Source of the DNA: a virus
Lineage: Duplodnaviria > Heunggongvirae > Uroviricota > Caudoviricetes
Strand: one strand, 5' to 3'
DNA length: 25,286 nt
Virus record (IMG/VR): IMGVR_UViG_2529293142_000022
Positions 12,184 to 18,235 of the stretch are shown here, in pieces (the stretch's first letter is position 1; the number at the start of each line of letters is the position of its first letter). A model generated the notes under the pieces. The model made no database searches and was not told the origin of the DNA. It saw nothing but the letters and a program-made list of their open reading frames with translations. The translations under genes and the position numbers were made by a program.

Positions 12184-12209
12184 CTTGTAATTACAAATGT
12201 CATTACAAG
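12184..12209 (-). promoter_or_regulatory. relBE operator/promoter (relO-like repeats)
   Basis: cttgtaattacaaatgtcattacaag: two overlapping TTGTAAT(T/G)ACA-type repeats 12-37 nt upstream of the relB start. Confidence 0.55.
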
Positions 12210-16453: not shown

Positions 16454-16810
16454 TTAAAAAATCAGAACGCCGTGCGGCCTCAACACCCGAAAGGCTTCTT
16501 TAAATCTCTGTCGCAAATCATCACGCCAGGCATCTTTATTCAGCCGTCCATATTTCTTTCCCATCCAGGCGTTATCACCAACACGCTCAAGATGCGGAGG
16601 GTCTAATACAACCATCGAAAAAGATGCGTCTGCAAATGATAATGCACGAAAATCTGCGATAATGTCAGGGTTGATAATCAAGCGTCTCCCATTGCGTAAT
16701 GTGTATCCTTCTTTTCTGATATCGCTGAATATCGCCCGTTCGTCAGACTTATCGAACCAGAACATGCGGCTGCCACAGCACATATCAAGAATGGTTGCCG
16801 GTGCACTCAC
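16454..16810 (-). CDS. Short SAM-dependent DNA methyltransferase-like protein (118 aa), probably C-terminally truncated
   Basis: Motif I-like ILDMCCGSRMF and motif IV VVLDPPH; GTG start overlaps the upstream stop (GTGA); no continuation in any frame downstream. Confidence 0.5.
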   Translation of the reverse strand: MSAPATILDMCCGSRMFWFDKSDERAIFSDIRKEGYTLRNGRRLIINPDIIADFRALSFADASFSMVVLDPPHLERVGDNAWMGKKYGRLNKDAWRDDLRQRFKEAFRVLRPHGVLIF

Positions 16811-17229
16811 TGCGCCACGTCCTGAAAATTACCCTGATAGAAAGCCAGTATGCGCTGCATAACTTCGCTCTTCCGGCACTCGCGACAGATTATGTTTAGG
16901 CGACTGTCGTAGCGACGTATTTCTCCGTCAGGTGATGACCAGATAAGGTCCGGATCAACCACAGCAGGTTTCTTCACCTTTGCCCTCGAGAGTTTTTTGC
17001 GGGCGTTTTGCCAGTCCTTACGCGCCTGTTCAGAGGGGAATAACCCGTAGCCGGAGTTGTATACATCGCCACTGGCTACCAGCTCTCTGGCAAGAACGCT
17101 CATCAGATATCTAGTCGCACCTGTTTTAGCTTCCAGTTGCCGTAACGTCTCACGGCCGCTCTGGCGCACGAGTTCCACCACCTGCCATTTAATTTTTTCC
17201 CGCTCTTCTTGTGTAAAAACTTTTGCCAC
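16807..17229 (-). CDS. Hypothetical early-region protein (140 aa)
   Basis: GTG start preceded by AAGGGGGA Shine-Dalgarno; coupled to the methyltransferase-like ORF; no family recognised. Confidence 0.55.
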   Translation of the reverse strand: MAKVFTQEEREKIKWQVVELVRQSGRETLRQLEAKTGATRYLMSVLARELVASGDVYNSGYGLFPSEQARKDWQNARKKLSRAKVKKPAVVDPDLIWSSPDGEIRRYDSRLNIICRECRKSEVMQRILAFYQGNFQDVAQ

Positions 17230-17269: not shown

Positions 17270-18235
17270 TTATCCTCTGAAACCAGGCGGAATTTCTGTA
17301 TCCGGTTCAGAAATATGATTAACACAACGCTGTACAGGTGAACGTCCCAGGCGGATGACCAGTTCGTCCCATTTTTCGCGGAGCTTTGACGGGCTCATGA
17401 TGTTTTTTACCCAGAATGGATCTCGCTGAACCCGACCAAACATTTCGCAAATTTGTCTGTGGCTTCTGCCATCCAGCATCCGCATTGTGCGCACGTCATT
17501 GGCCCAGGCAGTCCAGTTAGGCTCTTTTGGTCGCATGATCTCGCCATCATCACTGGCTGCCTGTTCGTAGAGACCCACGATCCGCCCCCAGATCCACTGC
17601 GCACACGCCAAATCCTCCCTGCTACCCCACTGGCGTTTTTTCGCACTAAACACAACCGCGTCGGAGTTCCGGGTTAAAAAATCCTGTTCAGTCGTCTGCG
17701 GGTCCGGTTGCGAAGCTTCCGGACGAAAAGTGTTTTTATTCTCTGTAGTAATCTCTGTTGTATTCTCTGTAAGATCATCAGGCCATTTTGACCCGATGAC
17801 ATTGGGTCGTTTTGAATCAATGGAGCGTTTCATTTTGACCTCTTCCATCGTGTCATTTTGACCTGATGGAGCGGCGCATTTTGAACCGATGGATTCGCTC
17901 AATTTGCCACCATCTAAAAGCTCGCTCCCATAGTTGATCGTGTAGAAATTGGTCATATCGCGCTTTGATTTATTGAGCTTTTCACAACGCAAAAGCCCCA
18001 GCGTTTTCAGACTTGCAAACGCGCGCTTTAACGTTGACTCTGACCAGAATGGGAACTGTTCCAGCCATTGTTCCGTTGTGTTATAAATCCAGCGAACACC
18101 ATCACATTCCATGCCGGAGTTGGTATCTCTCAACCAGTAGTGCAGTTGTTGCAAAACAATGGCTTCGTTTAAGCCAATTTTCATTGCCAGCTGCGTGTTT
18201 ATAACCAGTGGGCGTTCAGCAAAAAGAAGGCTCAT
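17270..18235 (-). CDS. Replication initiation protein, phage replisome-organiser (O-like/DnaD-like) N-terminal domain, 321 aa from ATG
   Basis: MSLLFAERPLVINTQLAMKIGLNEAIVLQQLHYWL...WSESTLKRAFASLKTLGLL; iteron array inside the gene; track ORF starts at a TTG (18289). Confidence 0.8.
   Translation of the reverse strand: MSLLFAERPLVINTQLAMKIGLNEAIVLQQLHYWLRDTNSGMECDGVRWIYNTTEQWLEQFPFWSESTLKRAFASLKTLGLLRCEKLNKSKRDMTNFYTINYGSELLDGGKLSESIGSKCAAPSGQNDTMEEVKMKRSIDSKRPNVIGSKWPDDLTENTTEITTENKNTFRPEASQPDPQTTEQDFLTRNSDAVVFSAKKRQWGSREDLACAQWIWGRIVGLYEQAASDDGEIMRPKEPNWTAWANDVRTMRMLDGRSHRQICEMFGRVQRDPFWVKNIMSPSKLREKWDELVIRLGRSPVQRCVNHISEPDTEIPPGFRG
17784..17914. repeat. Iteron array: six CATTTTGACC-like repeats at about 23-bp spacing; putative prophage replication origin
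   Basis: Repeat starts at 17784, 17808, 17831, 17854, 17877, 17900; lies in the low-complexity linker of the O-like gene. Confidence 0.6.

Follow-up and report, generated by a model that had tools for sequence, protein, structure and literature searches.

[quoted passage not shown] In lambda, the iterons are spaced by 20, 24, and 23 bp. Plasmid pSK41 has an origin, defined by experiment, that likewise resides inside its rep gene, where it carries four palindromic GTGTCAAAAGGACAC boxes spaced by exactly 23 bp, and the Rep protein has a three-part layout wherein the linker encoded by the origin is dispensable (PMC5703833). The pSK41 boxes are followed by approximately 2.5 copies of TGATACTGATTTTAT, which are AT-rich short repeats.

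Here, we analyzed a 25,286-nt stretch of viral DNA (hereafter termed the window). It represents an E. coli lambdoid prophage of the Qin/mEp460 type and is largely colinear with phage PhiR42_1. The preliminary description of this DNA had drawn attention to six regularly spaced repeats within an O-like replication gene and had likened them to the lambda origin. Our analysis supports this view, in that all features predicted at the level of sequence for a lambda-like layout, with an origin inside the initiator gene, are present. Specifically, nucleotides 17737 to 17914, which reside within the linker-coding portion of the prophage's own initiator gene, probably serve as its replication origin, and we estimate the probability of this interpretation to be approximately 0.85. 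The arrangement is a textbook one, wherein an uncharacterized family of initiators belongs to a well-known kind of system rather than to a new kind. The interpretation draws on sequence and its comparison, namely the anatomy of the repeats, selection at the DNA level, coupling of the repeats to the N-terminal domain of the initiator, the low stability of an adjoining tract, domain homologies, and the absence of a helicase loader. The relevant features, with iterons numbered in gene order, are as follows.

18979 to 19006, minus strand: pR-like promoter, TTGACT-16-AATAAT, upstream of cro (10 of 12 matches in a promoter scan)
18721 to 18951, minus strand: cro-like gene (Pfam P22_Cro), upstream of the initiator gene in the same operon
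18216 to 18737, minus strand: cII-like/YdaT-family gene (Pfam YdaT_toxin; PHROG 163, 'CII-like'), in the same operon
17270 to 18235, minus strand: initiator gene, 321 amino acids from the ATG at 18235 (ORF list; PHROG 391)
17915 to 18235, minus strand: N-terminal, putative winged-helix domain (amino acids 1 to 107), the putative iteron-binding domain
17892 to 17914: iteron 1, degenerate, sense strand GATGGTGGCAAATTGAGCGAATC; many relatives have a full-consensus copy at this position
17869 to 17891: iteron 2, sense strand CATCGGTTCAAAATGCGCCGCTC
17846 to 17868: iteron 3, sense strand CATCAGGTCAAAATGACACGATG
17823 to 17845: iteron 4, sense strand GAAGAGGTCAAAATGAAACGCTC
17800 to 17822: iteron 5, sense strand CATTGATTCAAAACGACCCAATG
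17776 to 17798: iteron 6, the best palindrome, adjoining the putative unwinding tract, sense strand CATCGGGTCAAAATGGCCTGATG
17737 to 17772: three tandem 12-mers, the putative DNA-unwinding element, sense strand TTACAGAGAATA CAACAGAGATTA CTACAGAGAATA (Tandem Repeats Finder)
17348 to 17713, minus strand: C-terminal domain (about amino acids 175 to 296), homologue of the lambda O C-terminal domain (BLASTP; AlphaFold2 helical bundle with pLDDT 58 to 79)
17273 to 17332, minus strand: C-terminal 20-amino-acid tail QRCVNHISEPDTEIPPGFRG, which mimics the C terminus of DnaT (14 of 20 identical)
16807 to 17229, minus strand: downstream DUF977/Ren-like gene (Pfam DUF977, E = 5e-29; PHROG 142, 'Ren-like exclusion protein')

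The strand of the initiator gene, which is the minus strand, was absent from the preliminary description. Judging from its orientation, the pR-like promoter probably drives transcription of the cro-like and cII-like genes and of the initiator gene, and hence of the putative origin. Upstream, on the plus strand, lies a DicA-like repressor gene. The downstream DUF977/Ren-like gene, which is not a helicase loader, sits at the place occupied in lambda by P, and a methyltransferase gene is found past it. The locus had also been suggested to be a self-contained replication module. This holds insofar as the initiator and the putative origin are present together, but Pfam and PHROG searches found no P, DnaB, or DnaC-like gene after the initiator gene, and none is present in the whole PhiR42_1 genome either.

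The open reading frame assigned by the program reaches further than the start codon used here, to a TTG at 18289. The PhiR42_1 counterpart is a 966-nt coding sequence labeled 'DNA replication protein O' that is 99.8% identical over this stretch, and the window gene has identities of 96.7 to 99.8% to its counterparts in the deposited phages mEp460_ev081, HannyBb, and PhiR42_1. The protein matches the PHROG 391 profile 'replication initiation O-like' over its full length (E = 9.8e-92; ORF amino acids 35 to 339 against profile positions 11 to 298 of 298), and searches of Pfam (E < 0.01) and NCBIfam returned no family for it. The designation "O-like" is justified for the C-terminal domain, wherein BLASTP aligns amino acids ~147 to 294 with residues 135 to 270 of lambda O (34% identity over 148 amino acids, E = 1e-26). 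It does not extend to the N-terminal domain, for which no Pfam match to that of PF04492 (Phage_rep_O) was found; the BLASTP alignment with lambda O covers the C-terminal half only. Instead, the N-terminal domain is a predicted winged helix whose closest fold match is plasmid RepA, a similarity at the level of fold only. In the AlphaFold2 model of the initiator, which has a modest mean pLDDT of 57.6, the linker (amino acids 109 to 174; pLDDT < 50) is predicted to be disordered. Given that the iterons code for amino acids 108 to 154 and the 12-mer tract for amino acids 155 to 167, the repeats do reside in a low-complexity linker, as had been noted. The initiator reads as a chimera composed of a putative RepA-like winged helix, a lambda O C-terminal domain, and a DnaT tail.

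Membership in the RepA_N family was considered and rejected on the basis of Pfam, hhalign, and an HMM search of the PDB, and only a likeness of fold and architecture is claimed. PF06970 (RepA_N) gave no Pfam match to the window protein or to 16 diverse N-terminal domains, and comparison of the initiator with pSK41 Rep yielded a BLASTP E value of 0.88 and an hhalign probability of 0.07%.

Plus-strand cores of the repeats begin at 17784 (CATTTTGACC), 17808 (CGTTTTGAAT), 17831 (CATTTTGACC), 17854 (CATTTTGACC), 17877 (CATTTTGAAC), and 17900 (CAATTTGCCA), with core-to-core steps of 24, 23, 23, 23, and 23 bp. The six positions and the spacing of about 23 bp originally reported are therefore correct as plus-strand coordinates, with five good copies and one degenerate copy. 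The full unit is a 23-bp iteron arranged head to tail, with unit starts at 17776, 17800, 17823, 17846, 17869, and 17892 in an array that spans nucleotides 17776 to 17914. The six-unit consensus CATCGGGTCATTTTGACCCGATG can be divided as CATCGGGTCA-TTT-TGACCCGATG, which is a near-perfect palindrome of 10+3+10 nucleotides. Three of ten core positions are mismatched in the degenerate iteron (17892 to 17914, core at 17900). The 24-bp step ahead of iteron 6 is kept across the family. Phased TTTT/AAAA tracts are located at the center of each iteron. These palindromes can be explained as probable protein-binding dyads that lie within a coding region. A terminator-like match at 17789 to 17809 proved to be merely the iteron palindrome on the antisense strand.

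The repeats are also in phase. Self-identity at period 23 is 0.574 over 115 nt (at 17786), compared to a background of 0.257 ± 0.044 for periods 7 to 60 at all positions, a signal that is 7 SD over background and ranks second in the window. The first-ranked periodicity has a period of 21 bp, lies in a RecE-like ORF, and is in frame, encoding 7-amino-acid units; this is a protein-level repeat, in contrast to the 23-bp iterons. Apart from this single stronger signal, the periodicity scan found no comparable repeat array elsewhere in the window. All three copies of the exact 10-mer core in the 25.3-kb window fall within the iteron array. For TCAAAATG, the raw count of four copies versus 2.2 expected in the window is not significant alone, and its nonrandomness rests on the fact that all four are clustered within 100 bp, on a single strand, and in 23-bp phase. 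Tandem Repeats Finder reported the adjacent 12-mer array but not the iterons because the iteron copies are too diverged, and the latter were analyzed by register-based and periodicity methods.

The repeats encode a segment of low complexity (…IGSKC…GQND…IGSKW…TENTTEITTEN…) with predicted disorder, which raises the prospect that they matter solely for the protein, as a peptide repeat or a linker of low complexity, and that the DNA itself has no function. The period of 23 bp is not a multiple of three, however, and therefore successive iterons are read in three different frames. That the units are palindromic also counts against this prospect. To this can be added the entropy at each codon position among 63 distinct diverged relatives that share the iteron type. 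In the N-terminal domain, entropies at the first, second, and third positions are 0.31, 0.18, and 0.97, whereas those of the iteron array are 0.32, 0.36, and 0.36 (permutation p = 0.38 for a third-position excess) and those of the tract are 0.00, 0.26, and 0.08. Thus, third-position variability is elevated 3- to 5-fold in the codons of the flanking domains of the same genes but not in the iterons. The loss of this variability in the iterons and the tract supports the conclusion that selection acts on the DNA in both. This flat codon-position profile together with the 23-bp period rules out a mere peptide repeat, an explanation that the entropy result in effect refutes and that we consider extremely improbable.

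If the iterons are binding sites for the initiator, their sequences should follow its N-terminal domain, since the rule for lambdoid phages is that origin specificity is set by the N-terminal half of the initiator. Among loci recovered with the tract 20-mer, the N-terminal domains form at least six clusters and the C-terminal domains at least nine, and these occur in mosaic combinations. Nearly every type of N-terminal domain is accompanied by four to six repeats with a period of ~23 bp that end beside the tract at the same distance, and the iteron cores vary with this type (GGTCAAAATG, GGGCAAATTGCCC of the Pantoea AH07 type, CAATTTGTC, GGGAAACCC, ATGCAGGAA, and AAAGGGCCA). Where the N-terminal domain is the same and the C-terminal domain is unrelated, identity of the iteron arrays is 81% (373 pairs; 100 distinct mosaic loci). 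In the converse case, with an unrelated N-terminal domain and the same C-terminal domain, identity is 29%, which is the chance level (10 pairs, all with the single recombinant L094). Regression over the 100 distinct loci gave an array identity of 0.84 × N + 0.13 × C. This coupling is the strongest in silico evidence in support of the view that the iterons are the binding sites of the initiator itself.

Sites bound by the initiator, or by another protein, might nevertheless be regulatory, with the real origin located elsewhere. Candidate roles would be autoregulation, control of copy number by titration or handcuffing, exclusion of related phages, and packaging or partition. Indeed, the iterons of plasmids also have a role in copy control and incompatibility. 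Our search of the literature found no origin assay for this family of initiators, nor any experiment that demonstrates origin activity, binding, or unwinding; searches on mEp460 replication, and text searches with the tract or its peptide, returned nothing relevant. Scans for the DnaA box and the IHF consensus near the array yielded only matches with one mismatch, which carry no weight. These points must be set against the fact that the array is always paired, at a fixed distance, with a conserved and easily melted tract, that the window holds no other comparable repeat array, and that the array occupies the same mid-gene place as the proven origins of lambda, the Stx phages, and pSK41 (PMC7466680, PMC5703833). 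We therefore regard a purely regulatory function as very unlikely.

A putative AT-rich unwinding tract beside the repeats, which had been suggested as something to look for, is indeed present at nucleotides 17737 to 17772. With respect to transcription, the tract lies downstream of the iterons, and it is separated from iteron 6 by a GATC site at 17773. It forms the least stable 36-bp duplex of the gene (dG of −41.3 versus −50.6 ± 3.4 kcal/mol), and the 36-bp segment of lowest stability is placed at 17732 to 17768, where GC content is 35%. At 65% A+T, the tract is less extreme than that of lambda. Its sequence is invariant across phages that differ in their iterons and domains. At least 120 viral contigs contain the tract 20-mer TACAGAGAATACAACAGAGA; in every case it is located in the middle of an ORF, in the same sense, and the proteins encoded have 290 to 367 amino acids. 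Loci L006 to L125 were chosen via this 20-mer, and the conservation of their tracts is partly circular, which is offset by a megablast comparison and by a sample chosen with N-terminal domain peptides only. In the latter, 44 of 76 usable loci have at least two CAGAGA repeats at the expected position within the gene with a spacing of 11 to 13 bp, compared to a background of one such run in 777 kb.

This sample derives from a survey that took a single genome from each species and relied solely on the N-terminal domain peptides NEAI[VA]LQQ and EQWLEQFP. The survey yielded 176 relatives from Enterobacterales, Vibrionaceae, Pseudomonas, Acinetobacter, Bacillus, Staphylococcus, lactobacilli, Clostridia, and others. 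Periodic repeats of ~22 to 24 bp are also present in the relatives from Staphylococcus, Limosilactobacillus, Bacillus, and Clostridia, and the layout of four to six iterons at ~23 bp followed by CAGAGA-type 11- to 12-mers extends from Enterobacterales to prophages of Staphylococcus, Bacillus, and Lactobacillus. For example, a Staphylococcus caprae prophage carries GGTCAAAATGACC iterons spaced 22 to 23 bp apart, followed by CCAGAGATTTC ACAGAGATTTC TTCAGAGACTTC. In this prophage and in Limosilactobacillus, the first two CAGAGA units are 11 bp apart, such that the first is read in another frame (TRD versus TEI), which indicates an element that functions at the DNA level. The module matches 2797 of 5426 complete E. 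coli genomes, and relatives of the initiator make up 4278 protein clusters. The 98 phage records with this N-terminal domain do not include any of the lambdoid phages of classical study.

The mosaic joints of these loci occur at or after the tract, such that the N-terminal domain and the iterons travel jointly while C-terminal domains are swapped. Moreover, the only stretch shared with the Stx phages by megablast is a 40-bp segment that includes the tract (97.5% identity), which is the pattern of a boundary sequence. Both observations would be expected if the CAGAGA tract were kept mainly as a recombination junction for the exchange of modules and were not an unwinding element, in which case the iterons alone would constitute the origin. 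We consider this unlikely. The tract is the thermodynamic minimum of the gene and is located at the exact place of the lambda AT-rich region, and in an Edwardsiella relative (L135) the sequence passes into lambda-like sequence directly after the tract. In addition, CAGAGA repeats are kept in Firmicutes relatives whose flanks have no similarity at the nucleotide level, with successive units 11 bp apart and hence in different frames. This persistence and change of frame suggest a conserved function of the DNA and argue against recent spread. The roles of junction and of unwinding element are compatible.

Given that no P, DnaB, or DnaC gene accompanies the initiator, the functions of the host must be used for helicase loading. 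One candidate for the link is the C-terminal tail. The sequence QRCVNHISEPDTEIPPGFRG is identical at 14 of 20 positions (70%) to residues 160 to 179, the last 20, of E. coli K-12 DnaT, and …VN.ISEPD..IPPGFRG is present at the C terminus of both proteins. The tail matches the DnaT chains 2ru8, 6aep, and 9zbt in the PDB. Outside these last 20 residues, the initiator does not match DnaT: with the NCBIfam DnaT model NF002770, it reaches 16.2 bits where the cutoff is 201, and the alignment is confined to positions 160 to 179. The label 'Primosomal protein I', given in RAST style to the mEp460 records, is a mislabel that stems from the tail alone.

Phage helicase or loader genes neighbor the initiator gene in 3 of 47 distinct loci with P-x-GFRG tails versus 7 of 17 with other tails, where Pfam confirmed them as DnaC-like, DnaB-like, or lambda-P-like (Fisher p = 0.002 for the comparison). 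Only Enterobacterales loci were found to have GFRG tails. A strict replacement of the loader by this tail is ruled out by the three GFRG-tailed loci that have a DnaC-like gene and by a third type of tail, an extension of ~60 amino acids ending in …IWKQATE…, that also occurs without a loader. The literature consulted gives no function for the DnaT tail and calls the recruitment of DnaB/DnaC by DnaT unknown (PMC5778457, PMC13377028), and a 2018 review of restart and a 2026 paper on the preprimosome name no contact for it. The tail may plug the initiator into DnaT-dependent loading by the host, which is the least certain step of our proposal.

From these features we infer binding, bending, melting, and origin firing, as well as the partner of the tail, in the following manner. 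Transcription of the rightward operon from the pR-like promoter would lead to production of the initiator and would traverse the origin. Dimers of the N-terminal winged-helix domain would bind the dyad-symmetric 23-bp iterons, five or six in number, to create a bent nucleoprotein complex, wherein bending would be favored by the phased A and T tracts at the iteron centers. The resulting stress could open the adjoining, easily melted tract of three 12-bp CAGAGA repeats. Since the phage has no P, DnaB, or DnaC of its own, recruitment of the host DnaB–DnaC machinery, via the usual partner of the DnaT tail, would then fall to the C-terminal domain related to lambda O and to the DnaT-like tail.

A broader reading joins the tail and the tract, and we put it forward tentatively as a possible but doubtful one. 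The DnaT-like tail might be the means by which loader-less ("initiator-solo") phage initiators capture helicase loading by the host, either via DnaB–DnaC directly or via PriA/PriB/DnaT. The CAGAGA 11- to 12-mer tract might likewise be a specific element for recognition or unwinding, hitherto undescribed, in a very large class of phage origins and not merely AT-rich DNA. If true, these phages give a clue to the role of the last ~20 residues of DnaT and offer a simple genetic handle on the handover from the restart preprimosome to DnaB/DnaC. The CAGAGA repeat at the presumed site of melting and the mimicry of the DnaT tail in loader-less initiators are both testable leads. On a practical level, the family is very common and has no Pfam or NCBIfam model, its members usually being labeled 'hypothetical protein' or, wrongly, as the primosomal protein noted above. 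Recognition of the module permits annotators to place the origin of a very common type of prophage.

Three features of the locus go beyond the textbook arrangement, namely the chimeric initiator, a 23-bp dyad-iteron design shared with plasmids and phages of Gram-positive bacteria, and the deeply conserved CAGAGA tract. Among the closest known systems are oriλ and the six-iteron origins of the Stx phages 933W and P27. [quoted passage not shown] The linker between domains is encoded by the iterons, the N-terminal half sets origin specificity (PMC7466680), the C-terminal domains are homologous (34% identity), and a Ren-like gene is found downstream. Unlike lambda O, the window initiator has an N-terminal DNA-binding domain that is unrelated in sequence, and its iterons are of another sequence with a spacing of 23 bp (one step of 24 bp). 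The window tract is a conserved repeat of three CAGAGA 12-mers, whereas that of lambda is an A-rich run. Also unlike in lambda, no P gene comes next and the initiator bears a DnaT-like tail, which lambda O lacks.

The RepA_N plasmid pSK41 shares with the window the central position of the boxes in the initiator gene, their coding for a linker, the 23-bp spacing, and the three-part protein. It differs in being a Firmicutes theta plasmid, whereas the window element belongs to a phage whose host is Gram-negative; in its C-terminal domain, which is a DnaG-binding RepA CTD rather than lambda-O-like; and in its downstream repeats, which in the window are 12-mers of a different sequence. The origins of lambda-type phages and of RepA_N plasmids look like one design, comprising a winged helix and an exchangeable domain for interaction with the host, together with 23-bp dyad iterons that encode a disordered linker and with short tandem repeats.

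The strongest periodic signal of the whole window is a 21-bp repeat (22635-22830; self-identity 0.617), which lies in frame within a RecE-like gene and encodes a peptide with a 7-residue period that is rich in Q, N and E (…NQNQHESERNYQKAEQNSPNALQNEPETKQPEP…). In contrast with the 23-bp iterons, this repeat is a feature at the protein level. TRF found two further short tandem repeats, of about 1.9 copies each.
21171-23648, plus strand, RecE-like (exodeoxyribonuclease VIII) open reading frame containing the 21-bp repeat
12186-12208, short tandem repeat with a 12-bp unit
20711-20735, short tandem repeat with a 13-bp unit

The related phage PhiR42_1 is colinear with the window and >97% identical to it outside three segments that have no counterpart in that phage.
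6178-8681, unmatched segment
10146-11459, unmatched segment
18860-19355, unmatched segment spanning the repressor/operator region
Because the last of these covers the repressor/operator region, the immunity specificity of the window prophage probably differs from that of PhiR42_1. The initiator gene also occurs, 96-97% identical to its E. coli counterpart, in two genome contigs (L130 and L132). Binning placed these in MAGs labelled “Bacillota bacterium” and “Veillonella parvula”, but they almost certainly come from Escherichia prophages and were assigned there in error.

Many initiators of Enterobacterales phages without a loader end in (I/V)P-x-GFRG, a copy of the host DnaT C terminus. This tail is present in the window (17273-17332), in the compared loci L002, L003 and L005, and in many among L006-L167. 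The “Primosomal protein I” label that RAST-type pipelines assign to such initiators likely results from it. The initiator tail is exchangeable, as an alternative ending of about 60 amino acids (…VERD..F…NRI…IWKQATE…) is also found on both types of C-domain.

The initiator of the Stx2a-converting phage Stx2_14040 (L004) has an N-domain unrelated to that of the window, terminates in …NFNW rather than GFRG, and has DnaC-like and DnaB-like genes after it. The iterons in this locus (iterons and tract within 2480-2720) are of the GGGAAACCC type with 23 bp spacing. Despite the different N-domain and iterons, the CAGAGA 12-mer tract is the same, with four units. In the window, a GATC (Dam) site at position 17773 is located exactly between the last iteron and the 12-mer tract. 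The versions from E. coli, Klebsiella and Stx phages share this site, but it is not conserved in Pantoea AH07. Several relatives carry a gene for Dam or another adenine methylase directly after the initiator.

In the Edwardsiella piscicida relative (L135, about 3500-3600), five CAGAGA units are followed immediately by …GGAATTCTGGCGAATCCCCCGAC…, which resembles the …GAGAATTCTGGCGAATCCTCTGAC… located just right of the AT-rich region of lambda (L126, 540-600), where only one CAGAGAAT occupies the equivalent spot. This arrangement suggests that the CAGAGA tract and the lambda AT-rich region are positional equivalents.
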